Below are positions 1 through 17,609 of a stretch of DNA of 64,000 nt, in pieces (the first letter of the stretch is position 1; every line of letters begins with the position of its first letter). The stretch comes from a phage: sequence record PZ347775.1, one strand, 5' to 3'. The notes under the pieces were generated by a model. It did not search any database, was not told the origin of the DNA, and saw only the letters and a program-made list of their open reading frames with translations. Both the position numbers and the translations under genes were made by a program.

Positions 1-329
1 TGGACAGTACGAGAACCAAAGTTTCCTTGACCATCTAACAAAGGAAAGTTATTATTCCAAGTATTAGCCATCAAAGCCCCCGCGTCTTGCGCAGAGTTTT
101 CACCATGATGATATCCAAGGTCAGCTACACCACCTGCAATAGAAGCGAGTTTGTGAAACTTATCTTTATTTCCTCGCGCCAAATCAAGAGCTCGAGCAAT
201 AACAAATCGTTGGACTGGCTTAAATCCATCAATCATATTTGGAATAGCACGATTTTCAACCGTGTACATAGCATAAGCCAATGCTTCATTATCAATGATA
301 CTTTTTAAATCGCGATTATTCAGTTGCAT
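1..329 (-). CDS. 52: DNA topoisomerase II medium subunit gp52, N-terminal part (gene continues beyond window start)
   Basis: Minus-strand ATG at 327-329; translation MQLNNRDLKSIIDNEALAYAMYTVENRAIPNMIDGFKPVQRF matches the GyrA-like N-terminus of T4 gp52. Confidence 0.85.
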   Translation of the reverse strand, partial: MQLNNRDLKSIIDNEALAYAMYTVENRAIPNMIDGFKPVQRFVIARALDLARGNKDKFHKLASIAGGVADLGYHHGENSAQDAGALMANTWNNNFPLLDGQGNFGSRTV

Positions 330-466
330 AAATTTACCATACTAGTGAATGTAGTGCCATAATAACATCAGAAATGAAAAGCACGACTTGAATTAATCCG
401 AACATTACTCCATAATATAGTGCTACCAATAAAGCAGCAAGGGCTACTGAGTAGCCCAAGATTTTC

Positions 467-625
467 TTAATCATTAGTAGATAACAACACAAATGTTAAA
501 TATGCACACATACCCTGAGCTAAAGCTTGCGAAAACACACTGCTGGCATCAATACAGATAGTTAAAACGCATGCTACTATCCAACAAATAAATGAAATAA
601 CTCCTAATAATTTTGCAATATTCAT
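467..625 (-). CDS. 52-aa hydrophobic membrane protein at the ac position
   Basis: ORF below the 60-aa track cutoff (MNIAKLLGVISFICWIVACVLTICID...); GAGGA SD 5 nt upstream; lies between stp and gene 52. Confidence 0.5.
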   Translation of the reverse strand: MNIAKLLGVISFICWIVACVLTICIDASSVFSQALAQGMCAYLTFVLLSTND

Positions 626-632
626 ATTTTCC

Positions 633-713
633 TCACTGGCGTCCGAAGACGCCTTTAGTTTTAAGATTGTTACGATAGAACTGCATCACGTGTTCGTTAT
701 GGAAATTACTCAT
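633..713 (-). CDS. stp: Stp peptide (26 aa), modulator of host PrrC anticodon nuclease / restriction
   Basis: Translation [26 protein letters not shown] matches T4 Stp as I recall it; start overlaps ndd stop (TAATG); absent from ORF track. Confidence 0.8.
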
Positions 714-1168
714 TAATATGCCTGCAAAACAAATTTAAAGTTATCAGCCAACATACGGTTCATTTCTTCAAGTGTTTGATACTCAGAATGATGATTACGA
801 GTAAACGCCAAAGCTAACTGACCCTTTCCAAATCCCGTCGTCAGAGGTTTCATCTTAGAAGCAGGCAAATAAAATACTGTATATGGAACATTGTTATTTG
901 CAATAGTACGCGCAAGCTGAGATCGACGCTGGCGAATATGACTTAGAACTGCACTGAATCCTTGCTTAGAACGCTGATTACCTACATAAAATCGTGCAGA
1001 TACACACGGATTATCAAATGGACCGCCAAATTTGCTCACTAAAAAGTAAAATCCAGGTTTAGATAAAATATCTTTATGTGGAACTCCCAAAAACCATTCA
1101 CCGTTCTTGATTGTACCAATAACGGTAGCGCCTGCATTGTTCAGATCAGTAACAGTCATATATTTCAT
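713..1168 (-). CDS. ndd: Ndd nucleoid disruption protein (151 aa)
   Basis: Starts at [25 protein letters not shown] with GAGGA SD; track ORF is extended upstream by a non-ATG start. Confidence 0.85.
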
Positions 1169-1228
1169 ATTAATTTCCTCTAAATTATTTTCTACTCCAA
1201 GGCCGCATGAATACACACGGCCATTAAA

Positions 1229-1444
1229 TTAATCATCGCAGTCGACGCTTAATTCCCAGAACTCTTCTACAGTATAAGTTTCAGTATCATTTTCAATACA
1301 GAAACGTTCATTGCTGTTATTTGCTAAAGTAGCGTTAACTGTCATTTTCTCGCTAGTGCTTTTAAGAGGCGAAATACGAATTAACTGATCACCATTATCT
1401 AAGCAAAAAATTTCACCAACTTTTACATCTTTAAAGATTTTCAT
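1229..1444 (-). CDS. hypothetical protein (ndd.1 position)
   Basis: 71-aa ORF with ATG and GAGGTGA SD; synteny. Confidence 0.5.
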   Translation of the reverse strand: MKIFKDVKVGEIFCLDNGDQLIRISPLKSTSEKMTVNATLANNSNERFCIENDTETYTVEEFWELSVDCDD

Positions 1445-1559
1445 AATTCACCTCAAGGAGTATAAAATCCAAATGCAGTTGTTGACCATCCCATCCAATA
1501 TGGGAAATTTGCACCAATGTAAAACATAAGAATATAAAACCAAATGCTTAGTAAATTCA

Positions 1560-1757
1560 TTATTTTACACCATTCCAAATTGTTTCAACCACAGATTTTA
1601 AGCCATTTTGGTGAATATCCATTCCGACAACTGCCATCAAATAGATTCCAACTACAACTGAACCTAAGGCAAAAATCAGCATGAAAATGAATAAAGCTGG
1701 AAAAATATTATCGAAAAACCATTCAATAAATGTAAAAGCACTGCGTTTACGCTTCAT
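1560..1757 (-). CDS. small membrane protein (65 aa)
   Basis: ATG MKRKRSAF preceded by GAGGAAA SD; strongly hydrophobic core; track start is an upstream TTG. Confidence 0.5.
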   Translation of the reverse strand: MKRKRSAFTFIEWFFDNIFPALFIFMLIFALGSVVVGIYLMAVVGMDIHQNGLKSVVETIWNGVK

Positions 1758-1764
1758 ATTTTCC

Positions 1765-1878
1765 TCACATAAATCCAAAGTAAGCGTTTAATACATCAAT
1801 CATTAAAACGATTGGGAATATACTCAAAACTACTAGTATTATAACTACATTCCATATAGCTTTAACAATATTTTTCAT
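1765..1878 (-). CDS. small membrane protein (37 aa)
   Basis: ATG at 1876-1878 (MKNIVKAIWNVVIILVVLSIF...) directly downstream of early promoter and GGAGGAACAG SD; track ORF extends through the promoter. Confidence 0.4.
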   Translation of the reverse strand: MKNIVKAIWNVVIILVVLSIFPIVLMIDVLNAYFGFM

Positions 1879-1906
1879 TTTCTGTTCCTCCGTAGTTGAT
1901 AAGATA

Positions 1907-1936
1907 ATAATACCACAGAGGAACAGTCTTGTAAAC
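1907..1936 (-). promoter_or_regulatory. T4-type early promoter (GTTTAC, 18 nt, TATTAT)
   Basis: Minus-strand -35 GTTTAC at 1931-1936 and -10 TATTAT at 1907-1912; flanked by inverted repeat ctgttcctc/gaggaacag. Confidence 0.5.
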
Positions 1937-2121
1937 AACTTTTTTAAAAATATTCGTAATAAATGTGAATGCCAATCACTACTGCCGAAACTTGCGCAAC
2001 CCACCACGCACACGCAATAAGTACAGAATTCAAAATTTTCATAATAACCTCATCACAAAAGTAAATGTTAAACAAATTAATGGAATACTAATTAACCAAA
2101 TAAAACACCACCATAATGAAC

Positions 2122-2385
2122 TCATAGTTCAATCTCAGCGATTTTCATTTCATTACTACTAATAGACGCTTTAAGACTATCTGAAAGAATTACATTCCAG
2201 TGGTCATTCATATGACCATTAACTAAGCGTGTAATTTCTTCGGGAGTTGAAAAATAAGGCGTATCAGACTCCCAGTGCGATAGTCCCAAGCGAGTATAAA
2301 TCATACCTTCATCATCGCTAGAATATTCAACTGACACAAACTCATCAGTTATTTTATGCTTAGCGTAATAAAATTTAAATTTCAT
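2122..2385 (-). CDS. hypothetical protein
   Basis: ORF with ATG MKFKFYYAK; synteny in ndd-denB interval. Confidence 0.45.
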   Translation of the reverse strand: MKFKFYYAKHKITDEFVSVEYSSDDEGMIYTRLGLSHWESDTPYFSTPEEITRLVNGHMNDHWNVILSDSLKASISSNEMKIAEIEL

Positions 2386-2390
2386 TTTAC

Positions 2391-2597
2391 TCAATAATCC
2401 GCTAAAAGATCGACGATTGCATCACGAAGACACTTATTCGCAATACGCTTAAGAGCAATTTCAGTTTCTGGAGCATTTTGAATAATCATTGAATTCAATT
2501 CAGCCTCAGCAAACTGAAGTTCTTTGACTAATTCAGCTTTATATTTTCCTTGCCCTTTCTTAGCTTTTGCTCGTTTTAATTCAGCTGTAGTAAACAT
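2391..2597 (-). CDS. hypothetical protein (68 aa)
   Basis: ATG at 2595-2597 preceded by conserved GGAGAATAAA cassette and early promoter; track ORF runs through the promoter. Confidence 0.5.
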   Translation of the reverse strand: MFTTAELKRAKAKKGQGKYKAELVKELQFAEAELNSMIIQNAPETEIALKRIANKCLRDAIVDLLADY

Positions 2598-2631
2598 TTT
2601 ATTCTCCAAATCCGCATCAGTTGATAGTTGT

Positions 2632-2661
2632 ATAGTACCACAGTCCTTGTGGTTTGTAAAC
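2632..2661 (-). promoter_or_regulatory. T4-type early promoter
   Basis: -35 GTTTAC (2656-2661), 18-nt spacer containing palindrome ccacaaggactgtgg, -10 TACTAT (2632-2637). Confidence 0.5.
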
Positions 2662-2677
2662 CGTTTTGTGAAAATTT

Positions 2678-3235
2678 TTAAATGGAAAGATACCATCCGT
2701 TGTAGTTGCTTTTTCTTACAACTTTACGAAGGTCTTCTCTATCACCGATGAACTTCGGAGTGTACTGGATGACACCTGGATGAATTTCTTTAGTGTTGAA
2801 TATAATTATACAGTCAGCGACTTGGTGATTCAGAATGGGCCCTAGATTTATTCCAGAACCGTATGGATACTCTCCGCTGCATCCGGTTGTTACCGAAATC
2901 CAACGTGAGTCAGTTTGGTGTGTCTTAACTTCTACACGAAGCCCGCAATATCTTGGATGCGCCAATACATCCCATGCGTATGTATACGGGTCATTAACAT
3001 CCTCTTGGCCTTTGTTAACATACCCGCTCAGCCAATCTGCTACAAAAAACTCTGCATACACAGCGATACGGCATCTTTCGATAACTTCTGCTTTATCCTG
3101 ATTAGGATTTTGTTTTAAAGAGTATCTTGCTGTATCAGCAATTTTGACCTTCATTTCACTAGTCAAATCATTGTTCGATAGGGTAAATGTTGGAATCTGA
3201 AATAGTCTCTGTAAACCCGGATTCGTTTTCTGCAT
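2678..3235 (-). CDS. denB: DenB, endonuclease IV (dC-specific ssDNA endonuclease)
   Basis: 185-aa ORF, T4 DenB length; synteny immediately upstream of rIIB region. Confidence 0.8.
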   Translation of the reverse strand: MQKTNPGLQRLFQIPTFTLSNNDLTSEMKVKIADTARYSLKQNPNQDKAEVIERCRIAVYAEFFVADWLSGYVNKGQEDVNDPYTYAWDVLAHPRYCGLRVEVKTHQTDSRWISVTTGCSGEYPYGSGINLGPILNHQVADCIIIFNTKEIHPGVIQYTPKFIGDREDLRKVVRKSNYNGWYLSI

Positions 3236-3300
3236 TAAACTTTCCTTTTACGTCGGAATCACTGATATTCATATAATAAATCATAGTTTCTCTTAAAACA

Positions 3301-3318
3301 AAAGGGCCGAAGCCCTTT
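3301..3318 (-). terminator. UUCG-tetraloop hairpin / intrinsic terminator
   Basis: aaagggccgaagcccttt; on the minus-strand RNA reads GGGC-UUCG-GCCC followed by U-rich tract. Confidence 0.5.
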
Positions 3319-3321
3319 ATT

Positions 3322-3516
3322 TTATTTGAATTGTGCAATTCTTTTCTCTAAACAATCTGCATAAGATTTCATTGAGATAAACTGCGAAAGCAGTAATTCT
3401 TGCTCGACTTCATTAATCGTTAGAAACTTTGTGCTTTCTAAAAATTTGCTTAGTGCATTAATTTTGAGCATTAATTGATCGTATTCTTCTTTTACTCGTG
3501 CTTGATAACCTAACAT
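3322..3516 (-). CDS. hypothetical protein (denB.1 position)
   Basis: 64-aa ORF with ATG and AAGGAAA SD. Confidence 0.5.
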   Translation of the reverse strand: MLGYQARVKEEYDQLMLKINALSKFLESTKFLTINEVEQELLLSQFISMKSYADCLEKRIAQFK

Positions 3517-3530
3517 AATTTTCCTTAGTT

Positions 3531-3546
3531 AAGGGCCGAAGCCCTT
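3531..3546 (-). terminator. UUCG-tetraloop hairpin at rIIB 3-prime end
   Basis: aagggccgaagccctt overlapping rIIB stop codon. Confidence 0.5.
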
Positions 3547-4483
3547 ATTTAAATTGTTCAGTAACGTCTTCAACTACTTCGTATTGGCAGGTACGCATTT
3601 TAGCATCGTTGTAATCAATCGGAATTGATACTACATCGCGAGGATGTACTTTAACTTTTACAACTCGGCTGGTTGAACTGCCAAAGTGACGAATATAAGA
3701 TTTAGAACACACATGCAGACCACGAGAACAAGTTTGTGTATCATCGTCATTCACACGAGTACGTGGCATTTTAACTACTTTACCAGGACTGTTATCAAAA
3801 GTATTTGAATGACAGTCAAAGTAATTACTGCGAACTACTTTCCAAGCATAGAAGTAACCGTCTTCTGTAATTTCAATATCGTTTGCTACCAAGAAATCAA
3901 AGAGTCGAGATACCGCTTTTTGGCTCGGGTTTTCTAACAGATTTTCCAAGAACGGAAAATAAAATTCAAAGTTTTCGCCTTTTTCCATCGAATCGAGAAT
4001 ACGATCAACTAAACCAGACCGCAATTCAATATTTTGATAGAACAAGCTTCCACCTTCAATTCGAACATCACCGGAAATATATTTTTCAACAGCGCGACGA
4101 ACGTTAATTTTTTGCGCCGCTTCTTCCAATTTATCTGCAACAAGCAGATTAAGAATTTCCTGGAAGTTTGAATGAGTATTAGGAGTTGCGTTATAAGTTA
4201 CACCGTCAACAGTAATTGAAATGAATTTTTTAGATGCATTCCAAATAATGTCAGATTTAGCAACTGGAGCAATAGCTGCATCGCTCTTAACTGTAACTGT
4301 AATGTCACCGCTAATGGTAACTTTGGAGCGCTCAGCTTCTTCAGCATTTTTCAAAACACGACGGATTGTGTCCACCGATACACCTTGCCAATCAGCCAAT
4401 TCCTGTTGGGTGTAATTACCACTTGAATACAGTTTGACAATTTCAGCTTGTTCGTTTTTGGTCAGGCATTTAATATTGTACAT
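3545..4483 (-). CDS. rIIB: rIIB membrane-associated protein
   Basis: 312-aa ORF, MYNIKCLTKNEQAEIVKLYSSGNYTQQELADWQGVSVDTIRRVL; T4 rIIB length and sequence. Confidence 0.92.
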   Translation of the reverse strand: MYNIKCLTKNEQAEIVKLYSSGNYTQQELADWQGVSVDTIRRVLKNAEEAERSKVTISGDITVTVKSDAAIAPVAKSDIIWNASKKFISITVDGVTYNATPNTHSNFQEILNLLVADKLEEAAQKINVRRAVEKYISGDVRIEGGSLFYQNIELRSGLVDRILDSMEKGENFEFYFPFLENLLENPSQKAVSRLFDFLVANDIEITEDGYFYAWKVVRSNYFDCHSNTFDNSPGKVVKMPRTRVNDDDTQTCSRGLHVCSKSYIRHFGSSTSRVVKVKVHPRDVVSIPIDYNDAKMRTCQYEVVEDVTEQFK

Positions 4484-4494
4484 AATTTTCCTTA

Positions 4495-6672
4495 TTAGGC
4501 CGCAAGGGCCTTCATAGTTTTAGCGATTTGGGAAACTTCATCATCACTTAAAGAATTGCGATAACCGATGAAGTCGGAAACAATACGGAATTTCTTGGTA
4601 AACTCAGCAACCATTTTATCACTGTTTTTTAAAGCATTACGTGATAATTCATCAAAAAGATTAGTTACGGTCCAGATGTCATGACCGATGGTATCTTTTC
4701 CACCATTGAAATATACACCCCGCAATGAACTAACCATATTACCAAGGCGAGTATATTCTTCGGAAACTTCATCTGTACTGAAATATTTCATCATAAAATT
4801 AAGTTCAGGATACTTAATAATTTTATCAATATATCGCTGAGCTGAACTTGAATAACCTACATACTTATCATAATCTACATCGTCAAAAGCATCTACATAT
4901 AAATCACGCAGAGTTTCAAAAATACATTGGCACTGACCAAGTTCTTTTACCTTTTTCTGCAAAAGTGGACGAATAACATAAAATTCATTAATGCCAATAA
5001 GATTAGCCATACGGGTCAAAATACTCGTAGATGGATTACAAAGCGATGTAGTACCATCCATAGAGAAAATATCAGAACGATGCATATATGCTACATAACC
5101 AGTAATTTCATCTGCTTCTGATGTGAGCGTAAACAGTTCCTCTTTTTCCCAGCGCCCGTCTTTAATTTCAAACTTAAATGCAGTAGCAGTTTTAGGACGA
5201 GGAGCTGCGCTTTTTACTACCTTTGGAATATAACTTTTAACTAAAGCTTCGATTTCTGACAAATAATGAATGTTAACTTCATCACTTTCAAACATTGCCA
5301 TAATGTCAGGAAGCAAATCAATCTGCGATTCTACTTCTGGATTAATAAACAGAAGCCGCTCATTGTGATGAATATTTAAGGTGTTATTAAATTCGCTATC
5401 ATCTAATGCACGTGCTAATCCACGGACAATATTAACACGATTTTTAGTATTATCAATAACAATATTAATTTTTGACGTATTAATACCAAACAGACGATAG
5501 CTTGACGCAACGGCTGAAGTTTCATGGCTTTGCTTAATGCGTTTCAGTCGAGGGTCAAGATTTACTTCATACACAACCCCTGCATTGCATAACTTACTGT
5601 CAGGTTCAAACATACTCTGCATCTTTTTATATGACAGATTTTTAGTCGTGAATTTGACTGAATTGCTAATCATATAATCTCGGGCAGAATATCCCATCTT
5701 CATCAATTCACGGTATGTATGACGAGGAGATGTAGATTCTTTAAATCGTTTTACATCTTCATTAAACGCCTGCTCACTGAGCTCTTTAACACGCTCAATA
5801 ATATTTTTACGAGTACGATCATCTAGTGAAAGAGCCTCACGCGATGGGGCAATATCAAGTGAACCCATTGGAAACTTAATGTAATTCACTTCATTGCGGA
5901 TGCTTAACCAGTTACGATCTCTAATAACACCTTCGATAGGATAAACAATGCCGCCATAGATAGCATACAATCCACCGCGATCTGGCCAGTATCTTTCTGG
6001 ATTTACGCCGTAATAATCATCAAAATCCGGAAAATAATCAATTTCGCGGTCAAGACCGTTAATGATAGCCAAATCTTTGAATGGTCGCATAATATAAGAA
6101 ACTTCATAAGCAAAGTTTCTAAAGTCTTTTTCTTCAACTGGAACTACGATTTCAATACCAGTTTTATCATCTGGACCCATTTCTTTTACGAATGTAGGTT
6201 TAATCTGTGGACCATCACCATCCATGTAAGCTACATAACCACGAATTTCACCTTTATGATATGAAGTAATACTAAATGTATCAGTATAACTAAACGGAGA
6301 TTTAGAACCTAAACCAAATCCACCAATGAAATCATTAGATTCAGCCTTAGATGAACTAAAGTATGAATTATACAACCCAGGAGAATTATCATCACCCTGA
6401 ATATCAAAATCGCTCATACCTGGACCAAAATCTCGGCAAACAAATCGCGGATCTAATCGTCCTGGAACTTGAATGATAAATTTTTCAGGATTTCCATTAA
6501 GAGCATGGGCATCAATCATGTTGGTAATCAATTCACGGACTACTGCGCGAATCTTGTTTGTATACAAATCAGATGACAGAATTTTAAATACTTTAGGAGA
6601 CGCTGTGATGCTAAATGCTTTTGATTTAGAACCATTACCAAGAATTGTTTCTTTTTCAGTGGTGATAATCAT
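4495..6672 (-). CDS. rIIA: rIIA membrane-associated protein (GHKL-type ATPase-like N-terminus)
   Basis: 725-aa [54 protein letters not shown]; T4 rIIA length and sequence. Confidence 0.95.
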
Positions 6673-6682
6673 AATTTCCTCA

Positions 6683-6886
6683 TTAATTCATATTGCGTTT
6701 AATAACTTCAGCAACTTCTAGTAGTTCATCTTTAGTTGCGGTGTCGGATTGAATTTTATCTCTAATATCCTTAAAGCGGTTTTTAAACTCTTCGGCTTCT
6801 CCCATATCGAAAAAGCGTTGAATGATTCTATATTCTCGATGAACTGCTTTATCAAAAAGTTCTAAATTTACTTTATATGATTTCAT
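6683..6886 (-). CDS. hypothetical protein (rIIA.1 position)
   Basis: 67-aa ORF directly upstream of rIIA. Confidence 0.55.
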
Positions 6887-6911
6887 TTCAATATCCTCAT
6901 TTGCCCAATTA

Positions 6912-6941
6912 ATTATACCACATCCTTGTGGTAAAGTAAAC
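6912..6941 (-). promoter_or_regulatory. T4-type early promoter upstream of rIIA.1/rIIA
   Basis: -35 GTTTAC (6936-6941), 18-nt spacer with ccacaaggatgtgg palindrome, -10 TATAAT (6912-6917). Confidence 0.5.
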
Positions 6942-8758
6942 TATTGGCTCATCCATTCTTTACGAAGGTCAGCATTATCTCCCATAAGCATTTCAAAAAG
7001 CTCTTTCCAGTTCTCAGGAAGTTTAACAACATCATATACTGGATTTTGAATCATCTCACGATATTCAGATTTTTCCAAAGAGCCAAGTCCTTTAATATAA
7101 CGGATGCTATGTTTAGGTAGAGCATCTTTGGCACTCTCATATTCAGCGACTGTATAAAACCATTCTTGTTTTTTACCGACCTGAGCGATGATTACAGGAG
7201 TTTTGACAAAGCGAATTCTTCCTTGTTCAAACAGTTCTGGCCAATTACTAAAAAATCCGAGCAGAGAAGGATAAATGCTTCCTAGACCATCATGGTCAGC
7301 GTCAGTCATAATGGCAATATTGTGATAATTCAAGTTTTCGGCTTTTTCACCAAGAACTAATCCAGTGATTGCGCAAATATCAAACAGTTCTTTGTTTTTA
7401 AGCATATCAGCATAAGACATACCCCAACTGTTGAGAACTTTACCACGCAATGGATAACCACCATGAAGTTCTTTATCACGAACATCAATAAGATATCCGA
7501 TAGCAGAATCACCCTCAGTCAAGAAAAGAGTAGTATCAGCATCTTTACCGCAAAGATTCGCTTTAATATGTTTATGAACCTTAGCTTTAGAAGCCTTTTT
7601 AGCTGCTTTAGTTTCTGCTGCTTTTTCTGCCGCCAATTTACGAGCCAAAGCAGCTTCAATAATTGGCATTAAAATTGCTTCATTATTTAAAATAGCACGT
7701 GAAATCTTTTTAGCATCAAGCTGAATATGACTACGAATTTCACCAAATGGAGAAGTCAAACGCTCTTTAGTTTGAGAATCAAATCGCATGTTTTTCATAT
7801 CACGAACAAACATAACGATAGTCAAACATTCTTTAACACGTGCTTTAGTTACATCAATTTTGAACTTACGTTTGATTTGTGGAATAAGGTCTTCACAAAT
7901 ATCATCCATAACACAGTCAATGTGATGGCCACCATTCTTAGTATGAATGTTATTAACGTATGTTAATTGACGAAAACCGTCGGGTGAACGACCGACCGCA
8001 ATAGAACAGTTTTCCTGTTCTTGAACGATAGCATGCTCATCATATTGGCGTGCATATTTCTTAAAATTACCCTGAACCTTTTTACCGTTAAAGGTAAATT
8101 GAATATCAGGATAAACTACTGCAAGTGTCTGGAGACGATCTAGTGTAATGTCAAGATAAACTTGAGATAGCTCATTAGTTTCAAATGACATAAAATCAGG
8201 AATGAAAGTAACGCGAGTTCCTTTCCATTTTCCAGGAATATCTTCCCATGATTTATTTTCCATGCCATTTGAACAACGAACTACAATATTATTTTGACCA
8301 TCGCCAGTTTCACCGACAAACATCACAGAAAAAATGTTAGTTAAACTAGAACCAACACCGTTCATACCGCCAGTGACGCGTTCTTTGTCATCACCGAAGT
8401 TACCACCTGCTTTTGGAATAGTCCAGGCAGCAACAGGACCAGGAATTTCTTCACCAGTAGGTGTTTTAACCATCGCTTGTGGAATACCACGACCGTTATC
8501 TTCAACTGTTACTTGATTGTTTTTAATAGTAACATTAATTTTATTCGCGAATTTAAACTTAGTACGAATACCTTCATCTACTGAGTTATCGATAATTTCA
8601 TCAATAAGCTTAACAAGACCAGGTACATACTGAACACTTTCCCATTTACCAAACAGAAAGCGCTCATGCATTTCATTAGCAGAAGAACCAATGTACATGC
8701 CGCTACGCTTTTTGATATGTTCAATATCGCTCAGAATTTTAATTTCATTCTTAATCAT
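6941..8758 (-). CDS. 39: DNA topoisomerase II large subunit, single fused polypeptide covering T4 gp39 plus gp60
   Basis: 605 aa from ATG at 8756-8758; GyrB-like ATPase N-terminus and Toprim-like region (LTEGDSA) in one uninterrupted frame. Confidence 0.9.
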   Translation of the reverse strand: MIKNEIKILSDIEHIKKRSGMYIGSSANEMHERFLFGKWESVQYVPGLVKLIDEIIDNSVDEGIRTKFKFANKINVTIKNNQVTVEDNGRGIPQAMVKTPTGEEIPGPVAAWTIPKAGGNFGDDKERVTGGMNGVGSSLTNIFSVMFVGETGDGQNNIVVRCSNGMENKSWEDIPGKWKGTRVTFIPDFMSFETNELSQVYLDITLDRLQTLAVVYPDIQFTFNGKKVQGNFKKYARQYDEHAIVQEQENCSIAVGRSPDGFRQLTYVNNIHTKNGGHHIDCVMDDICEDLIPQIKRKFKIDVTKARVKECLTIVMFVRDMKNMRFDSQTKERLTSPFGEIRSHIQLDAKKISRAILNNEAILMPIIEAALARKLAAEKAAETKAAKKASKAKVHKHIKANLCGKDADTTLFLTEGDSAIGYLIDVRDKELHGGYPLRGKVLNSWGMSYADMLKNKELFDICAITGLVLGEKAENLNYHNIAIMTDADHDGLGSIYPSLLGFFSNWPELFEQGRIRFVKTPVIIAQVGKKQEWFYTVAEYESAKDALPKHSIRYIKGLGSLEKSEYREMIQNPVYDVVKLPENWKELFEMLMGDNADLRKEWMSQ

Positions 8759-8810
8759 CACTTATCCTCGTTTGATTTCGGGAATATTATACTCCGGTAA
8801 TCATAAAGCT

Positions 8811-8829
8811 AAAGGCCCGAAGGCCTTTT
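8811..8829 (-). terminator. UUCG-tetraloop hairpin
   Basis: aaaggcccgaaggccttt just upstream of topoisomerase gene start region. Confidence 0.4.
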
Positions 8830-9088
8830 ATTTAAAACGGATAGTCGAATCCTTGAAGAATAGACCAGAACATACGGTTCCTTCTACTTTCTGCCCTGTA
8901 GGTCCAATAGCACGAAATCCAGTATGCTGGAAATCATTTTCAGAGCAACCGAACCAATTATATCCAGTGATTTCAATATTAGTAAAACCACTTGAAGACA
9001 AAACTTTGGTTGCATTATCAGCATCAGTACATCCTACTAAAGATACTGCTAATACTAATGCCGCGATAGAACGATTAACATATTTCAT
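8828..9088 (-). CDS. small lipoprotein / exported protein
   Basis: ATG MKYVNRSIAALVLAVSLVGC: signal peptide with lipobox LVGC. Confidence 0.5.
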   Translation of the reverse strand: MKYVNRSIAALVLAVSLVGCTDADNATKVLSSSGFTNIEITGYNWFGCSENDFQHTGFRAIGPTGQKVEGTVCSGLFFKDSTIRFK

Positions 9089-9092
9089 AATT

Positions 9093-9470
9093 TCACTCAA
9101 ATTTAATGGCTTGAAGGAGACTAATAATTCTTAAGCGACTTCTTTCATCTTTAACTGTAAAAGAAAGAGGGTCACCAGATTTCATAGTGATGGTGCATCC
9201 AAAATCAAAATCTTCTGTAACTTCTTCGAAGAAGTCAAATTCTTCATCATAAATTAGAACATTACTCTGAAAACTGTGAAGAATTTTTCCATCATTTCCA
9301 GATGCTGTACTAATCATTGTAACATTATGGCCTTTCATATCTTCAACGATAAATTCGCTTGTAGATATTACGGCATTAATAGAACCATTCCTATAAATAG
9401 AAGAAAGCAGATATTTCTTTTCTTCACCTTCGCGAACACGATATTTCTTACCGATTTTAAACATAATCAC
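9093..9470 (-). CDS. hypothetical protein
   Basis: 125-aa ORF; synteny between gene 39 and dexA. Confidence 0.5.
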   Translation of the reverse strand: MIMFKIGKKYRVREGEEKKYLLSSIYRNGSINAVISTSEFIVEDMKGHNVTMISTASGNDGKILHSFQSNVLIYDEEFDFFEEVTEDFDFGCTITMKSGDPLSFTVKDERSRLRIISLLQAIKFE

Positions 9471-9645
9471 CCTTTAAGTAAGTCGTAAAATCCACCATTC
9501 ACATGCTTAGGAGCAGAAGGCAGACGAGTAGACAAACGATGACATTTAGGGCAAACATCATTTTCTCGTTCAGAAATCTTTTTAATTTTTTCATATTCAT
9601 GCCCACAATCTTCGGATTGGCATTTATAATCATACAATGGCATAA

Positions 9646-10065
9646 TTATTCCTTAAAGTGTGCTTTCAACATCTGATACAAGGACCATGCCTGTTCATTA
9701 TTTTCAATAGTAACTTTCATGACTGGGAATTCTGTGAAATCTTCTATTTGTTCTTGCTCTTCCTGCTCTTGTTCTTCAGATGCCTGGTATGGATTTTCCA
9801 CTTCATCAAAGAACCCAGCTTCGTTAGTAGAAAGCCAGATAAAGTTTTCGTCAAGGATATCACCATGTGTTGCATATCCAACTGTGCCAGTAGATGTCAC
9901 AATTTTAGTAGGACGCCCGTAATAGTCCACATCTAAAATTTTAAAAGGTTCCATACCTAAACGTCGTGCATAGATTCCGTTATCAGTATGGTCTTTAATA
10001 AAATTTTCTTGAGCTTGTTTATTTTTAAATTGATACCATTTATTAACTTCAAATCTAATAGCCAT
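9646..10065 (-). CDS. hypothetical protein with acidic EQ-repeat segment
   Basis: 139-aa ORF; internal [14 protein letters not shown] tract. Confidence 0.5.
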
Positions 10066-10280
10066 TAATAAATTTCCTTCCAGTAAGTTGTGCCATCTTC
10101 AGTAATTTCACGGAATACACCGTAAATTGGTTGTTTATCGCCGACTTTCTCATACACATAAACCGAAGTCAAGTGAGTAAACTTAACAGTATGTTCCTTT
10201 TGAACCACTACCAAATCTGGATCAAATAATACATCTTCAAATTCGTCATTAGTGCAGTTCTGAACAATTTTACGTTTCAT
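10065..10280 (-). CDS. hypothetical protein (71 aa)
   Basis: ORF abutting upstream gene stop. Confidence 0.5.
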
Positions 10281-10293
10281 TACAATTTCCTCA

Positions 10294-10563
10294 TTAATTG
10301 AACAGTGGAGCGATGCGTTTCAGAAGAGTAGCAGCACCTTTGGCAAATTTTACATCATGAAAAACAGTTTCTTCTTCCGTTACAACACGAACTTTAATGT
10401 TTTCACAATCCCAATTTTTACGAACAATCTTCAAAAGCTGCAGTAAATCTTTACATTCAGCAATATCGATAACACATCCACGAGAATCTTCCATTATCGC
10501 ACGATAACCATAAGCCATACCATAATCGTTGAAAGATTGTTCGATGATAATTAAGTTTTCCAT
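10294..10563 (-). CDS. hypothetical protein (89 aa)
   Basis: ATG preceded by conserved GGAGAATAAA cassette; track start lies in the SD. Confidence 0.5.
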   Translation of the reverse strand: MENLIIIEQSFNDYGMAYGYRAIMEDSRGCVIDIAECKDLLQLLKIVRKNWDCENIKVRVVTEEETVFHDVKFAKGAATLLKRIAPLFN

Positions 10564-10670
10564 TTTATTCTCCAAGTTGTTTTCTGTATCAGTAGTTGAT
10601 ATTGATATAGTACCATAATCAACTACTGATGTATATAGTTTTATGAAAAAATTTTAAACTTTATGCAAAT

Positions 10671-11090
10671 TTATGCTAAAGCTGCTTCGCACCATTTTTT
10701 AATTTGGAATTCAGGAACTACCATGAACTGGCCTGCAAAAACAATATTGTAGAGCTTGACGCCATCTTCTACCCAACGGTCCGAAATAAAACCAGCGACT
10801 TGATTCGTTGTCCACGGAGTTCCATCTGTTGCCGCCGCAATTGTGAATTTATGGTCTTTTACAACTAAAACTGAAGAACAAAGTTTCCATTTAAATGCGC
10901 TTTCTTCTGGCTCAATGAATTGGCTTGAGACATAACCAATGTTACCATCAGCGTCACGAACTTTAACCTCGTTACGACCAAAAACTGGATCACTTACAGA
11001 AAGAACTTCAACCAGCTTTCCTGCAACTTTAGAACGAGAAGCAACGGATACATATACGTAATCACCAGTAGAGAGATTTACAATATTCAT
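10671..11090 (-). CDS. hypothetical protein, paralog of adjacent 162-aa protein
   Basis: Shares RSK-AGKLVE and WVEDGVKLYN-VF motifs with 11107..11595. Confidence 0.55.
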   Translation of the reverse strand: MNIVNLSTGDYVYVSVASRSKVAGKLVEVLSVSDPVFGRNEVKVRDADGNIGYVSSQFIEPEESAFKWKLCSSVLVVKDHKFTIAAATDGTPWTTNQVAGFISDRWVEDGVKLYNIVFAGQFMVVPEFQIKKWCEAALA

Positions 11091-11106
11091 AATAATTCCT
11101 TAAACT

Positions 11107-11595
11107 TTATGCATAGAGAGCTTTGCTATAGTGTTTAATCCAGCTTTCAGGAATGACTTTGTATGTTCCTAAAAATACCACATTATACAGCTTAACACCG
11201 TCTTCTACCCACTGATCGGTAATGTATGCGCACATAGCACGAGTATAAACAGCCACACCATCATCTTTGATAAATTTAAATTCACAAGGAGCAATGAACT
11301 TAATAGCCTGACCGAGTTTCCACTTAAAGTCTACACCTACATGCGAAGTATCAATCGTTTCAATTCCTTTAGCAGGAACAGCTTTCAAAAACGCAGACTC
11401 AAGAAATTTCGCACGAACATAGCCAAACTGAGGTTTAGACTTTCCATCTTTAGGAATGATACGCACTTTTACTTCAGAATCTTCATCTTTAACACCATGT
11501 TTAAGCTGAATGCTTACAATTTCGACCAATTTTCCTGCTGCTTTAGAACGTGATTTATCAGATACACGAGCAATTTCACCAATATTAATAATCAT
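11107..11595 (-). CDS. hypothetical protein (162 aa), paralog of adjacent gene; possibly MotB-like by size and position
   Basis: Shares conserved blocks with 10671..11090; own early promoter upstream. Confidence 0.55.
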   Translation of the reverse strand: MIINIGEIARVSDKSRSKAAGKLVEIVSIQLKHGVKDEDSEVKVRIIPKDGKSKPQFGYVRAKFLESAFLKAVPAKGIETIDTSHVGVDFKWKLGQAIKFIAPCEFKFIKDDGVAVYTRAMCAYITDQWVEDGVKLYNVVFLGTYKVIPESWIKHYSKALYA

Positions 11596-11639
11596 AGTTA
11601 TCTCTCACTTGTTAAAAAGATTTTATACTCCACAGGACC

Positions 11640-11669
11640 ATTATACTCTGGTCCCAAGAGTTTGTAAAC
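11640..11669 (-). promoter_or_regulatory. T4-type early promoter
   Basis: -35 GTTTAC (11664-11669), 18-nt spacer, -10 TATAAT (11640-11645) embedded in inverted repeat gggacc/ggtcc. Confidence 0.5.
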
Positions 11670-11671
11670 TA

Positions 11672-11764
11672 TTAATTCAAAATAGCTACCACTGCACTAC
11701 GAGGTACTACGCTAAAATCACCTGCATGAACAACGTTCAGAAGTTCAACACGATAAATTTTCAT
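11672..11764 (-). CDS. 30-aa micro-ORF
   Basis: ATG with GAGGA SD and own GTTTAC/TATTAT promoter (11792-11821); MKIYRVELLNVVHAGDFSVVPRSAVVAILN. Confidence 0.3.
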   Translation of the reverse strand: MKIYRVELLNVVHAGDFSVVPRSAVVAILN

Positions 11765-11791
11765 TTTATTATCCTCAGTAGCTATGGTGTT

Positions 11792-11821
11792 ATAATACCA
11801 TAACTAACCGAGGAAGTAAAC
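11792..11821 (-). promoter_or_regulatory. T4-type early promoter
   Basis: -35 GTTTAC (11816-11821), 18-nt spacer, -10 TATTAT (11792-11797). Confidence 0.45.
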
Positions 11822-11827
11822 AACTTT

Positions 11828-12511
11828 TTATCGTTTTGTTGGAAGGGATAGAGGATCGCAATCTTCCTCTGACGGAGCATCTTCAAGACCCATAGCATAT
11901 CGCAAAGCATACTTCATCATCAGGATGTCTTTCGCACAGTCATGAATAGAATCATGTGCAACGAATCCATCTAAAGTTCCCTTTGGAAGAGGACATGTGG
12001 TCATATCACGAACAAGCAAAAGTGCTTCAATTCTAGTACGAATATCACGTTGATTCCAGAATTTACATGGTTCTAACTTAAATGTATCAAGCTCATTCTC
12101 AGAAACGCCATTAAGACGTTGAATATCGCGAATGAGATCGACTAAAATTGGAAAATCAAACGACATTCCACGGCACCAGCCTTGAGATTTCCAAGGATCG
12201 ATGTTATGTGCATTGATGTAATCATTAAATTTTGCAATACCATCGATAGTGCTTACATCTTCATCTGATGGCGCAATATTTTTTCGAGCTTCAGGAGACT
12301 GATTTTTCCACCATTCGATAGTGCTTTTAGTAAAAAGACGATGTCCTTTTTGGCTTTTTAAATCAAACTTGATTTTAATGCCGCGTGAAACTAATTCATC
12401 AAAGGATTCAACTACTTCTGGGTTAGGGTCAAAGGCAATAACAGCTAAGTCAATAACAGCTGCTTTTTCACCGCTTCCCATTGTTTCAAAATCTATAATA
12501 AAATCAAACAT
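11828..12511 (-). CDS. dexA: DexA exonuclease A
   Basis: 227-aa ORF MFDFIIDFETMGSGEKAAVIDLAVIAF; T4 DexA length and DEDD-type exonuclease N-terminus. Confidence 0.9.
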   Translation of the reverse strand: MFDFIIDFETMGSGEKAAVIDLAVIAFDPNPEVVESFDELVSRGIKIKFDLKSQKGHRLFTKSTIEWWKNQSPEARKNIAPSDEDVSTIDGIAKFNDYINAHNIDPWKSQGWCRGMSFDFPILVDLIRDIQRLNGVSENELDTFKLEPCKFWNQRDIRTRIEALLLVRDMTTCPLPKGTLDGFVAHDSIHDCAKDILMMKYALRYAMGLEDAPSEEDCDPLSLPTKR

Positions 12512-12786
12512 TAAATTTTCCTCGCTAAATCGCGAATTTGACCTACAGTATAATCTTGGATATAAACTTTATTAATGGGCTCATCAATAAATTTTGCCAT
12601 AGATTCAATATCTTTTTGTATCTCTTCAAGACTGTATACTATCTTTAAAGCTTTTTCGCGAATAGTAACATTATCAGGTCCTGAATTTTCTTGAATGACA
12701 GCTTTAACATTTGTCATAAGAGATTTAAACTGCTGCAAACTTAATTCAATCATTAATAACCGCCTTATAAAGATGGCTAATTTCAC
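12511..12786 (-). CDS. hypothetical protein
   Basis: 91-aa ORF between dda and dexA. Confidence 0.5.
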   Translation of the reverse strand: MKLAIFIRRLLMIELSLQQFKSLMTNVKAVIQENSGPDNVTIREKALKIVYSLEEIQKDIESMAKFIDEPINKVYIQDYTVGQIRDLARKI

Positions 12787-13006
12787 CTAAAACATAATCA
12801 CTGATTGTAACAGTTTTCACTTCACCACAAAAGAATTCTAACGCAATCAAATCTCGTTCAATTTCTTCCAATTGAAGCATTAACTTGCCTGATTCAATTT
12901 TCACGTTTTTGCGATTTTTACTATAAGCTATTTCATATATTTCGCTCACTTTATCTTGAAGTAGATAAAACTGGTCTTTAGTTATTTCCACGAATAGCTT
13001 CCTCAA
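12746..13006 (-). CDS. hypothetical protein
   Basis: 86-aa ORF between dda and dexA. Confidence 0.5.
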   Translation of the reverse strand: MRKLFVEITKDQFYLLQDKVSEIYEIAYSKNRKNVKIESGKLMLQLEEIERDLIALEFFCGEVKTVTISDYVLGEISHLYKAVIND

Positions 13007-13012
13007 ATTTAA

Positions 13013-14332
13013 TCATACATAAAACACATCATAACGACCACGTGTTACACCAACATAAAGAAGCTGCTGAGCCAATTCAGCATCTGCATAATGGATACAA
13101 GGCGTATAGATAAAAGCACGGTCTACAGACATGCCCTGAGCTTTGTGGAATGTTGATGCAGGAAGTGCTTTCACTTTACTAAACTGTGATTTAGCATCCC
13201 AAAAATCACTCCATGGAGCTTTTCCACCTTTATTCCAATTTTTATAAGTTTCTGCCGTTTTACCTAAAAATAAGTTAAACTTATACAGCTCTTCATCAGA
13301 TGAAATTATTTTAATCTTTTCACGATAATATTCATCATCGCCGTAAGTTTCTACTGTTAAATCCCAATGACGAATTAGATATTCTCCAGGAACACCACGA
13401 GCTTTAACAAATGTTGATGTATACTCTGCTTCTATAATACGAACTAATTGTCCGTTATTAAAAATAATTTCTGACACAGGCTTTCCATCAATTTTATATG
13501 TTTTAATTAGTGGTTCCTGCATTACAATAATTTCACCAACGATAAAATCTTTATCAGTTTCAAAAATCTTTTTACGAATAATGCTATTTAACTTGTCAAC
13601 AGATTTATTCGTAAATGCCATTACACGATTTTCAAACAAATCATCTAGTGATTTTACGATTGAAAAATAATTTACCATAAAATCGCGTAAAGCGGTATCA
13701 CCAGTAAATCCACGTACTCCATGTCCGTCAACAATTTTATCATAAATCCACTTACCATTACGAACATCAGTAGCTACATCAATAATAGGAGCATTACTGC
13801 GTTTAACTTCAGTGAGTTCACACTGATAAAAATCTTTATGTGTAAAGAATGGACTGATATAAGCAGTGTTTTCTCCTGGGTCAACAGGTCTAATTTGCTT
13901 ATTATCGCCTATTCCAATTATAGTACACCATGGCGGGATAGTTGAAAGCAAAATTTTAAATAGCTTTCTATCATACATTGACACTTCGTCGCAGATTAAT
14001 ACCCTGCATTTAGCCAAATCCGGTACTTCTTTTTGCTCAAAAAGAACGTTTTCTTCGTATGTTACTGGGTTAATTTTGAGAATACTGTGAATAGTACTCG
14101 CTTCTTTCCCTGACAGTTTTGAAAGAATCTTTTTAGCTGCATGAGTAGGAGCTGCTAAAATAATGCCAGTTTCGCCTGTAGATATTAAGGCTTCAATGAT
14201 GAACTTAGTAAGAGTAGTCTTACCAGTACCAGCAGGTCCATTAATAGTTACATGATGTTTCTTTTCTTTAATAGCCCTCATAACGATGTTAAAGGCATTT
14301 TTCTGGCCTTCTGTCAAATCATCAAATGTCAT
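13013..14332 (-). CDS. dda: Dda DNA helicase (SF1)
   Basis: 439-aa ORF; Walker A GPAGTGKT; T4 Dda length and sequence. Confidence 0.93.
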   Translation of the reverse strand: MTFDDLTEGQKNAFNIVMRAIKEKKHHVTINGPAGTGKTTLTKFIIEALISTGETGIILAAPTHAAKKILSKLSGKEASTIHSILKINPVTYEENVLFEQKEVPDLAKCRVLICDEVSMYDRKLFKILLSTIPPWCTIIGIGDNKQIRPVDPGENTAYISPFFTHKDFYQCELTEVKRSNAPIIDVATDVRNGKWIYDKIVDGHGVRGFTGDTALRDFMVNYFSIVKSLDDLFENRVMAFTNKSVDKLNSIIRKKIFETDKDFIVGEIIVMQEPLIKTYKIDGKPVSEIIFNNGQLVRIIEAEYTSTFVKARGVPGEYLIRHWDLTVETYGDDEYYREKIKIISSDEELYKFNLFLGKTAETYKNWNKGGKAPWSDFWDAKSQFSKVKALPASTFHKAQGMSVDRAFIYTPCIHYADAELAQQLLYVGVTRGRYDVFYV

Positions 14333-14640
14333 CGTAAATTCCCTGCAATTGGTATACTAACAATACGCCCAGTATCTAAAATTCGCCGATATAATCTTTG
14401 TGTGTCTACATCAGGCTTAACATGTTTAACTTCTATTTTATTAAACCAAAACTTGCGTGGAGTCTCAACTAATCTCGGAATTCCCATACCTAAAGCTAGT
14501 CGATACTGCTCTTTAAGAGTTGTAAAAACTTTATCGGCAATCTCCCTTTCAAAAAATACAGCAGGACGATGTTCATCAAGAGGAACAGGCACCGCAAATC
14601 CATCTTTATCTCTATACACTATCGCATATACATAAAACAT
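14329..14640 (-). CDS. hypothetical protein (dda.1 position)
   Basis: 103-aa ORF overlapping dda start by 4 nt. Confidence 0.6.
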   Translation of the reverse strand: MFYVYAIVYRDKDGFAVPVPLDEHRPAVFFEREIADKVFTTLKEQYRLALGMGIPRLVETPRKFWFNKIEVKHVKPDVDTQRLYRRILDTGRIVSIPIAGNLR

Positions 14641-14641
14641 A

Positions 14642-15388
14642 TTATCCTCGGATAAGTTTAAAAATTGAACAATTTAGCGGGTATCCTCTTTTCAGTTTAA
14701 GTTTATCAATAAAAGACAAGTTTTGATACCGCTCTACACCTTGAATAATTTTATCACACATATCATATTGCATTTCTGCTTCTGACAACTTTTTCACAGT
14801 TTTCCAATCCGAGCCTTTAAGAAGAACGTTCAATTTAACAACTTCAGCGCCTTCTGCTATACGAGAACCATCAATACGAGCTTTGAGTGCTACAATCGTT
14901 AGCTTAATGTCAGAGGTTTGTTTTGATTTAGAAAGCTGAGAAATGTGTTCAATTCGGTTTTCGCGTTTTTTCTGTATAGCTTTAATTTGATTATAAGTCT
15001 TTTTGATTTTAGCCCATTTCTTTTCATCTAAATTTAGTTTATGAACTTTTTTCGCAGATGAACGACCAATTCGTAAAGCAAACAAATCACGCTTTTCAAT
15101 CAACTCTTCTAAAGTATAATCAGAACGAAATGTATTGTACTTTTTCTTTACTGCAATAACATTCCCTTTAATGTATCCAACGTTATTATCAAAACGTTCT
15201 AATGATAATTTCTCTCCTTCAATACGATTATCAAAAGGTTCTCCCGAGTAAGCGCAAACTTTCTGATCTAAAATGTTCTTAATGTAATTGAAGTCTAAGT
15301 TAAAATCTTTAGAACGTCTTTTGGCAGATGCCTGAGTATGCTCTAAACGACGTGTAATTTTACGAATTTGATTTTTAGACAGTTTCAT
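14642..15388 (-). CDS. srd: Srd-position protein (248 aa)
   Basis: Location between dda.1 and modA as T4 srd; identity by synteny and size only. Confidence 0.5.
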   Translation of the reverse strand: MKLSKNQIRKITRRLEHTQASAKRRSKDFNLDFNYIKNILDQKVCAYSGEPFDNRIEGEKLSLERFDNNVGYIKGNVIAVKKKYNTFRSDYTLEELIEKRDLFALRIGRSSAKKVHKLNLDEKKWAKIKKTYNQIKAIQKKRENRIEHISQLSKSKQTSDIKLTIVALKARIDGSRIAEGAEVVKLNVLLKGSDWKTVKKLSEAEMQYDMCDKIIQGVERYQNLSFIDKLKLKRGYPLNCSIFKLIRG

Positions 15389-15418
15389 ATTTTTCTCACG
15401 GACGGGTTAACTACTTAT

Positions 15419-15448
15419 ACTATAACATTTTTACTTCAGCTTGTAAAC
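15419..15448 (-). promoter_or_regulatory. T4-type early promoter upstream of srd-position gene
   Basis: -35 GTTTAC (15443-15448), 18-nt spacer, -10 TATAGT (15419-15424). Confidence 0.5.
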
Positions 15449-15504
15449 AACTTTATGAAAAATGCTTTAAAACTTTCATGGTATAATGAATCTAAGTCCT
15501 TCCA

Positions 15505-16107
15505 TTATAGATTAAATCCTTCAAAATCAAGAGTATAGATAGTGTATGTTGAATACTTTTTATACTCGTATCTATCCGCAATTCTAAATACACTTCCAGC
15601 TGGTATCATTACTTCCTGTTCATCTGAAACTAATTCCATATTACGATAACGATGGCTATCCGGAAATTTAAAACTCGGACTATATTCTTTACAACGTAGA
15701 GCTTTTATAGCATACTCCTGAAAATTAAATACCATAGGAGCTTTGAATTCAAAAATAACTTGTGTGTTGTATTCTAATCCAGAAGCAAAATGCAGAGCTA
15801 TATTTTTATCATATGAAGCTGATACTACTTTATCGAATGTAATAATATCAATTCCTTGATTTAACACCTGTTTAGTCTCAACTGGAACACCTCTCCAAAG
15901 AGGTTTATCGTTTGGAACCAAACGAGATTTGATTATTTCATTTAACCAAGAATGATCGTCTGGCTTATTAGTAATACAATGAATTAAAAGTTCAATTTCA
16001 GATAAATTAAATCCTTCAGAAAGTAATTCTTCACGAATAGAAGCACGCACCGATGCATCCATTGATTTTATTTTAAAATCTTTTAATTGCATTGCTGAAT
16101 ATTTCAT
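15505..16107 (-). CDS. modA: ModA ADP-ribosyltransferase
   Basis: 200-aa ORF; R-S-E motifs LWRG / SASYD / DEQEVMIP; T4 ModA length. Confidence 0.9.
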   Translation of the reverse strand: MKYSAMQLKDFKIKSMDASVRASIREELLSEGFNLSEIELLIHCITNKPDDHSWLNEIIKSRLVPNDKPLWRGVPVETKQVLNQGIDIITFDKVVSASYDKNIALHFASGLEYNTQVIFEFKAPMVFNFQEYAIKALRCKEYSPSFKFPDSHRYRNMELVSDEQEVMIPAGSVFRIADRYEYKKYSTYTIYTLDFEGFNL

Positions 16108-16727: not shown

Positions 16728-16753
16728 GATAGCCTCCATATACTTCAGAAGCT

Positions 16754-16783
16754 ATCATATCATTGTTAGGAAGGAAAGTAAAC
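16754..16783 (-). promoter_or_regulatory. T4-type early promoter upstream of modB
   Basis: -35 GTTTAC (16778-16783), 18-nt spacer, -10 TATGAT (16754-16759). Confidence 0.45.
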
Positions 16784-16794
16784 AACTTTTTGAA

Positions 16795-16977
16795 TTATTT
16801 TGCCCAGGGAGCCCAGGGCGGAGGGTCAAGATGGTATGAAGCTAGTTCTTCTAGAAGAGCATCTGGGGCTTCAATTCCATAATTCTGTAATACTATACGG
16901 TACTCTTTCTTATAATCACTAGAATCATTCTGGATATTCGTAGAATGATTATCTTCTAACATCTCAAATAAATCCAT
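16795..16977 (-). CDS. hypothetical protein (modA.2 position)
   Basis: 60-aa ORF. Confidence 0.5.
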   Translation of the reverse strand: MDLFEMLEDNHSTNIQNDSSDYKKEYRIVLQNYGIEAPDALLEELASYHLDPPPWAPWAK

Positions 16978-16985
16978 ATTAATTC

Positions 16986-17601: not shown

Positions 17602-17609
17602 ATCTCTGT

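Follow-up and report, generated by a model that had tools for sequence, protein, structure and literature searches.

The window analysed here is a 64-kb stretch of phage DNA (1..64000). It belongs to a Tequatrovirus (T4-like) genome in which the early genes lie on the minus strand, and it covers the part of the T4 map that runs from the ac/stp/ndd region through rIIB and rIIA to the mobD/rI region. A preliminary description had drawn attention to three very short ORFs, each said to possess its own early promoter and a strong SD sequence and to encode a hydrophobic peptide. All three were found exactly where they had been placed, on the minus strand, i.e. ORF1 at 1765..1878 (37 aa), ORF2 at 11672..11764 (30 aa), and ORF3 at 60365..60469 (34 aa), with the stop codon included in each interval. 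The DNA surrounding each of them shares 96–99% identity with hundreds of Tequatrovirus genomes. The signals in front of the ORFs were likewise confirmed. T4 early promoters follow the pattern GTTTAC-N15-TGnTAnnnT, and a strict match to it, GTTTAC-N15-TGGTAT(T/A)(A/G)T, is located on the minus strand upstream of ORF1, ORF2, and ORF3 (1907..1936, 11792..11821, and 60498..60527, respectively), followed by the SD sequences GGAGG, GAGGA, and AAGGAG, respectively, 6–8 nt before the ATG.

In the 64-kb window the strict promoter pattern has 16 matches, none of them on the plus strand. The SD-led ORFs that come first after these 16 sites range from 30 to 333 aa and the majority are shorter than 90 aa, indicating that short first cistrons are the rule in this genome. 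In a generic sigma-70 scan covering the first 4.6 kb on the minus strand, the promoter of ORF1 tied for the best score (10/12 matches) and was the only one among the joint-best sites to contain a TG-extended −10 box. An Rfam scan of the whole window (1..64000) identified no family that reached the gathering score. By our own estimate, an ORF of 30–37 codons follows a given ATG by chance in about 7–11% of cases in this AT-rich DNA. Because chance ORFs of this length are not rare, the evidence for coding must come from conservation and not from the presence of the ORFs themselves.

ORF1, encoding the peptide MKNIVKAIWNVVIILVVLSIFPIVLMIDVLNAYFGFM, is identified by sequence comparison as T4 gene ndd.4. 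It shares 33 of 37 residues with residues 6–42 of T4 Ndd.4 (NP_049884, annotated as 'predicted inner membrane') and matches phrog_3098 over its full length (E = 1.5e-20; residues 1–37 on profile positions 1–37 of 37); PF26889 is the precomputed Pfam assignment of homologues. The early promoter and SD sequence are those of the T4 gene as well. The T4 reference product is 42 aa long, but its ATG overlaps the SD sequence (1879..1893 on the minus strand of the window; T4 166750..166764). In all eight other Tequatrovirus sequences compared, this upstream ATG is replaced by ACG, and two of the eight encode a peptide identical to that of T4. These features, together with the 37-position PHROG profile, favour the shorter form, and the true ndd.4 product is thus probably 37 aa, with the T4 reference start lying five codons too far upstream. 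A protein homologue search with the extended 42-aa query recovered just eight close relatives.

Homologues of ndd.4 were detected by tblastn in 603 phage records, each with at least 80% coverage. As a search based on DenB gave only eight IMG/VR loci, diversity was instead sampled from annotated phage records. In these, ndd.4 lies on the early strand between denB and ndd in five genera of the Tevenvirinae: Tequatrovirus, Dhakavirus (JS10 and dhabil), Gaprivervirus (VR25), Mosugukvirus (PM2), and Kanagawavirus (PEi26). Among the small genes of the denB–ndd cluster, only ndd.4 is present in all five genera sampled, and in PM2 it is the sole small gene remaining between denB and ndd. A promoter-like site and a GGAG SD sequence directly precede every syntenic homologue. 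An exhaustive HMMER search of 1.84 billion protein representatives returned only five, all from T4-like phages, which means that there are no distant homologues from which a function could be borrowed; the Ndd.4 family is restricted to T4-like phages.

The ndd.4 frame remains open at 50–60% amino acid identity across genera. Inter-genus pN values are 0.06–0.29 compared with pS values of 0.5–0.9, and dN/dS, where computable, is about 0.07–0.2. The variable columns are distributed over the three codon positions as 18/10/28. In the other two frames, which served as shifted-frame controls, the ratios are about 1–2 and stop codons are present. Within Tequatrovirus, the few differences are all non-synonymous (four non-synonymous and no synonymous between the window and T4), so that the selection signal rests on the inter-genus comparisons, in which synonymous sites are saturated. 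As judged from this substitution pattern, ndd.4 is under strong purifying selection.

In terms of its predicted properties, Ndd.4 is a single-pass inner-membrane micro-protein with a cytoplasmic N-terminus. Its best 19-aa Kyte–Doolittle window scores 3.05 (the usual transmembrane threshold for this test is 1.6), and it has a 17-residue apolar core as well as K2 and K6 at the N-terminus. AlphaFold models it as one helix (pLDDT 92), a result of little weight given how short the peptide is. Of the aligned columns, 14 are invariant (M1, K2, K6, I8, W9, N10, V17, L18, I20, F21, P22, V24, I27, and D28), and on a helical wheel a 120-degree arc takes in 10 of the 13 that remain when Met1 is set aside. 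This arc may represent a helix packing face, a statistic that is no more than suggestive. AcrZ, MgrB, and T4 Ac are small single-pass membrane regulators of about 30–50 aa with one transmembrane helix; Ndd.4 resembles them in size, in its one helix, and in a conserved face suggesting helix–helix packing, but shares no sequence similarity with them.

The ndd.4 promoter heads a multi-gene early unit in the order ndd.4 > ndd.3/2a > ndd.2 > ndd.1, all on the minus strand. The second cistron (1560..1757) encodes a 65-aa membrane protein of the DUF7248 type (PF23906, E = 4.4e-20; phrog_2401), the third (1453..1560) is the 35-aa ndd.2 homologue (phrog_4135, E = 2.8e-23; T4 annotation), and the fourth (1229..1444) is the 71-aa ndd.1 homologue, a soluble protein. 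The unit is tightly packed, and the ndd.4 stop codon lies within the SD sequence of the DUF7248 cistron, 9 nt before the ATG of the latter. The 65-aa frame, intact in the window, corresponds to two T4 entries, 'ndd.3' (26 aa) and 'ndd.2a' (40 aa). The T4 reference is one base short right after codon 2 of this gene (ATGAAGCGT reads ATGAA-CGT in T4; T4 locus L003, 4433..4629), which indicates, at the level of sequence, that the two T4 entries are the halves of one frameshifted DUF7248 gene. In Shigella phage Sf25 (protein P0007), the first 31 residues of Ndd.4 are continued by the C-terminal portion of the DUF7248 sequence. This fusion represents a further deletion in the ndd.4 cluster, where the tiny membrane genes seem prone to in-frame deletions.

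ORF3 encodes the 34-aa peptide MKVLFVVYVMIQYNHPMFTYNLVNNIIDIIQRSM and is assigned, again from its similarity and position, to T4 gene mobD.2, as a real conserved early peptide. Thirty of its 34 residues are identical to T4 MobD.2 (NP_049712), and it matches phrog_3515 over its full length (E = 4.3e-22; residues 1–34 on profile positions 2–35 of 35). As in T4, it is located upstream of mobD.1 (unit order, mobD.2 > mobD.1) with the same promoter and hairpin, but the two genes are separated by 26 nt in the window, whereas they overlap in T4. Matches were obtained by tblastn in 844 records, and homologues are present in four genera, i.e. Tequatrovirus (the window and T4), Mosigvirus (JS09), Karamvirus (CC31), and Jiaodavirus (Klebsiella phages), which share the core (V/I)QYxxP(M/L)FTYN(L/M/F)V. 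Uncorrected pN/pS is 0.23–0.47, with pS near saturation. Both ndd.4 and mobD.2 were already annotated in T4 under the accessions given above and have PHROG families of their own, which contradicts the suggestion that such ORFs are missed by length cutoffs.

The description of all three products as hydrophobic peptides holds for ORF1 but not for the other two. ORF3, whose best Kyte–Doolittle window is 0.92, possesses only nine consecutive apolar residues, forming a short hydrophobic N-terminus that is followed by a strongly amphipathic C-terminal half (hydrophobic moment, 0.49), predicted to be helical. AlphaFold also gives a helix (pLDDT 91), to which little weight can be attached at this length. 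The best Kyte–Doolittle window of ORF2 is 1.42. ORF2 and ORF3 both fall under the threshold of 1.6, and neither was accepted as a membrane peptide on this hydropathy criterion.

ORF2 is of a different nature. Its residues 1–7 are the start of motB.2, and its residues 6–30 correspond, with 100% identity to T6, to the C-terminal end of a MotB paralogue of 180 aa that is annotated in T6 and most relatives. Compared with T6, the window lacks 955 bp, and the BLAST flanks overlap at GTGTTGAA (11744..11751 on the minus strand; position 541 joined to 1496 in T6 locus L018), an 8-bp microhomology that is present at both ends of the segment kept in T6. Profile matches are confined to the tail of the MotB family, i.e. 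to positions 186–210 of the 210-position phrog_2333, which corresponds to the T6-type motB.1 paralogue, and to the end (last 24–25 positions) of the MotB-like phrog_1671; no Pfam match to the MotB domain (PF17613) was obtained for ORF2. Since more than 85% of that domain is absent and only the last approximately 23–25 residues are represented, ORF2 counts as a fragment, not as a member of the family. As read from this junction, ORF2 does not constitute a separate gene but is a chimeric remnant (codons 1–7 of motB.2 and the last approximately 23 codons of the T6-type motB.1), the scar of a 955-bp microhomology-mediated deletion. The deletion kept the motB.2 promoter, SD sequence, and first seven codons and fused them in frame to the tail of the paralogue.

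The contiguous junction occurs in five records, representing four phages (CrRp10, KMB39, KFS-EC3, and F13076), among approximately 598 records with a match. Different deletions at the same locus are present in BYEP01 and in two T4 laboratory variants. That ORF2 is a newly born functional micro-gene retained by selection, as its intact promoter, SD sequence, and ATG, its in-frame fusion, and its identity in four phages from different hosts might suggest, is barely credible given its rarity, a one-in-three chance of an in-frame fusion, its make-up of a seven-codon head and a fragment of a 160–210-residue domain, and the independent deletions just mentioned. Conservation of the reading frame in relatives, the check that the preliminary description had put forward, is thus found for ORF1 (603 records, five genera) and ORF3 (844 records, four genera) but not for ORF2.

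Some further observations were made on the MotB-family genes. T4 motB.1 appears to be frameshifted at its C-terminus relative to the 180-aa paralogue of T6 (T4 locus L004, 876..950 on the minus strand; T6 locus L018, 1036..1578), and the conserved tail VELLNVVHAGEYSVVPRSAVVAILN lies in T4 just past the motB.1 stop codon in a different frame. In the window, two tandem MotB-family genes are located on the minus strand at 10671..11090 and 11107..11595. The first contains the full PF17613 domain, and the second, a 139-aa paralogue, aligns with no more than the C-terminal half of that domain.

The 'own promoters' of the three ORFs are PeSL-type cassettes, a kind of element described previously in T4-like phages, and the units transcribed from them contain several genes. 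PeSLs are defined by an early promoter combined with a stem-loop, in most cases positioned between −35 and −10 or covering the −10 box, with the SD sequence and ATG of the next gene at the end (Arbiol et al. 2010; PMC2839356). The cassettes of the window contain a sigma-70-like early promoter, an AT-rich upstream region, and an SD sequence and start codon at the 3' end. In read-through RNA, hairpins of 15–17 bp are predicted at all three promoters, with the promoter spacer forming the 5' arm and the −10 box lying in the loop, whereas leaders beginning at the predicted transcription start are unstructured. The promoter of the ndd.4 unit (GTTTAC-N15-TGGTATTAT), the homologous site of which carries an early-promoter annotation in phage SA20RB, overlaps a stem-loop at 1882..1926 on the minus strand (15-bp stem, −23.2 kcal/mol, z = −5.3). 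This stem-loop can form only on read-through RNA; its loop also includes the predicted start site, and its 3' arm holds the SD sequence GGAGG (1887..1891). At the motB.2 promoter, the hairpin at 11772..11814 on the minus strand (−23.7 kcal/mol, z = −5.1) pairs the SD sequence GAGGA in its 3' arm, and at the mobD.2 promoter, the hairpin at 60485..60520 on the minus strand (z = −3.65) leaves the SD sequence just outside the stem. Hairpins are maintained with different stem sequences in other phages, at ndd.4 in Dhakavirus, Gaprivervirus, and PM2 and at mobD.2 in T4 and Mosigvirus JS09; these were folded sequence by sequence, the 5' arms being offset between genera in the MAFFT promoter alignment.

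The wording 'own promoter' is therefore correct in that a promoter lies directly upstream of each ORF, but it is misleading in that these promoters head multi-gene units and that the association is not constant. In Karamvirus CC31 and the Jiaodavirus phages, no promoter was found before mobD.2, whose ATG overlaps the stop codon of the upstream gene (ATGA-coupled), indicating that the promoter is not an attribute of the micro-gene. The exchangeable nature of such segments has been noted in phage PST, in which ndd.4/.5 are replaced by other ORFs relative to T4 and were explicitly treated as an exchangeable cassette (Comeau et al. 2014; PMC4122927). Published PeSLs occur as repeated copies in hyperplastic regions, and the window also contains a repeat of the ndd.4 promoter–leader–SD module, located upstream of the nrdC.8 homologue at 54987..55049 on the minus strand. 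The two copies are identical at 57 of 63 positions (compared with 1874..1936), and the second forms the same hairpin (z = −5.4). Repeated PeSL copies may serve as linkers for recombination; the one rearrangement analysed, that of ORF2, however joined coding sequences at the 8-bp microhomology and not two PeSLs. Two further promoters, at 6912..6941 and 52037..52066, look nearly identical to each other, and the leaders at 2632..2661 and 30001..30030 have GGATTTGGAGAAT in common.

The stems of the window resemble published PeSLs in their early sigma-70-type promoter, their position over the spacer and −10 box, and the SD sequence and ATG at the 3' end. They differ in that the SD sequence is held in the 3' arm in two of the three cases and that no U-tract was found after the stems. 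This location of the SD sequence suggests translational occlusion on read-through RNA, instead of or besides termination. On the basis of the predicted folds, transcripts reading through from upstream promoters would sequester the SD sequences of ORF1 and ORF2 in the hairpins, and translation of these two ORFs would occur only from RNA started at the proximal promoter. ORF3 falls outside this scheme, and the occlusion is weak in phage PEi26 (Kanagawavirus). A comparable arrangement exists in T4 at e, soc, 49, and I-TevI, where read-through RNA folds over the ribosome-binding site and RNA begun at a promoter within the hairpin can be translated. The internal promoters of those genes are late, whereas that of the window is early and its occlusion effect is a prediction. 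The RegB nuclease cuts the motB.2 leader of T4 and moderately cuts the nrdC.8 leader (PMC1702504). The motB.2 leader (GGAU-AAUAAAA) is identical in the window and T4, and the nrdC.8 leader is common with that of ndd.4. Cleavage at GGAG/GGAU may later shut off the messages with ndd.4 and motB.2 leaders.

Published data on T4 were consulted for ndd.4 and mobD.2. Transcripts of both genes were classed as 'early', and neither protein was detected by mass spectrometry (PMC9697503, Table S2). Both scored 'Not Fit' in a CRISPRi-ART knock-down (PMC11879866) and were non-essential in HIDEN-SEQ transposon sequencing, with 18/18 and 15/15 TA sites hit, respectively (10.1101/2025.11.20.689424). In one conditional comparison of the latter study, ndd.4 did not change (log2FC 0.03, q = 1.0). 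The two genes are thus dispensable on laboratory hosts. As the proteins were undetected, which is expected for tiny hydrophobic peptides, the claim that they are translated rests on the evolutionary evidence. A literature search for T4 ribosome profiling and for functions of ndd.4 or mobD.2 found nothing specific.

Taken as a whole, we consider it highly probable (roughly 85%) that ORF1 is ndd.4, that ORF3 is mobD.2, that ORF2 is a deletion scar, and that all three are first cistrons behind PeSL cassettes. Under this reading, host sigma-70 RNA polymerase would transcribe ndd.4, a real coding gene, in the first minutes of infection; the 37-aa product most likely inserts into the inner membrane as one transmembrane helix with its lysine-rich N-terminus in the cytoplasm, and it is followed by two small membrane proteins coupled to it in translation, DUF7248 (from the unbroken ndd.3/2a frame) and Ndd.2. 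It is conceivable, although we propose it only tentatively, that Ndd.4 packs against a conserved inner-membrane partner, of host or phage origin, during host takeover. A more specific version, which we regard as doubtful, is that Ndd.4 serves specifically as a transmembrane effector. It would bind one particular inner-membrane protein conserved among enterobacteria as soon as infection has begun, and the SD-occluding PeSL hairpin would restrict its translation to promoter-proximal transcripts; its purpose would perhaps be the blocking of a defence that acts at the membrane, the exclusion of superinfecting phages, or assistance to Ndd in moving the nucleoid to the membrane. A direct partnership with Ndd, whose gene is adjacent in PM2, was set aside, as Ndd alone is enough to disrupt the nucleoid.

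That the peptides as a group act at the membrane as effectors of superinfection exclusion or of anti-defence, along the lines of the preliminary description, appears unlikely. In its favour, ndd.4 is predicted to encode an immediate-early membrane peptide, it sits in the rIIB–denB–ndd–ac–stp region, which is rich in host-interaction genes, and, like accessory effectors, it can be dispensed with in the laboratory. The hydropathy values of ORF2 and ORF3 are not those of membrane peptides, however, and none of the three peptides is similar to Imm, Sp, or any characterized family. No Pfam family was obtained at E ≤ 1 for ORF1 and ORF2, and ORF3 gave one sub-threshold chance match (PDCD10_N, E = 0.16); in the PHROG search, the three ORFs matched only their own families of unknown function. 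The unchanged value of ndd.4 in the conditional comparison cited above likewise speaks against this idea.

The position of the ndd.4 stop codon inside the next SD sequence, in a tightly packed unit, could be taken to mean that ndd.4 is translated but that its peptide sequence is irrelevant, the ORF merely delivering ribosomes to the coupled membrane-protein gene downstream. This is very improbable, as the peptide has 14 invariant residues and a dN/dS of about 0.1, and in PM2 and dhabil it is retained in front of a different downstream gene (ndd or ndd.1). Still less can be said for the possibility that the micro-ORFs are untranslated leader or spacer DNA of the PeSL cassettes, conserved through constraints on DNA or RNA (promoter, hairpin, or recombination linker), even though Ndd.4 and MobD.2 escape proteomic detection and show no fitness effect, the flanking cassettes are clearly conserved and structured, and random ORFs of this length are not rare, because inter-genus substitutions in ndd.4 concentrate at synonymous sites in the annotated frame only, mobD.2 exhibits the same pattern, the frames stay open at 50–60% amino acid identity in four to five genera, and the hairpins lie upstream of the ORFs with none inside them.

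ORF1 and ORF3 are long-annotated T4 ORFs and the PeSL architecture was known, and in this respect the analysis adds little that is new. The re-analysis does provide clean evolutionary proof for ndd.4 and mobD.2 as protein-coding micro-genes despite their undetected peptides. ORF2 illustrates that the combination of a promoter, an SD sequence, and a short ORF may be a mere deletion scar, which calls for caution in the discovery of phage micro-ORFs. If a membrane partner of Ndd.4 were found, this would add one further piece to the picture of host takeover by T4.
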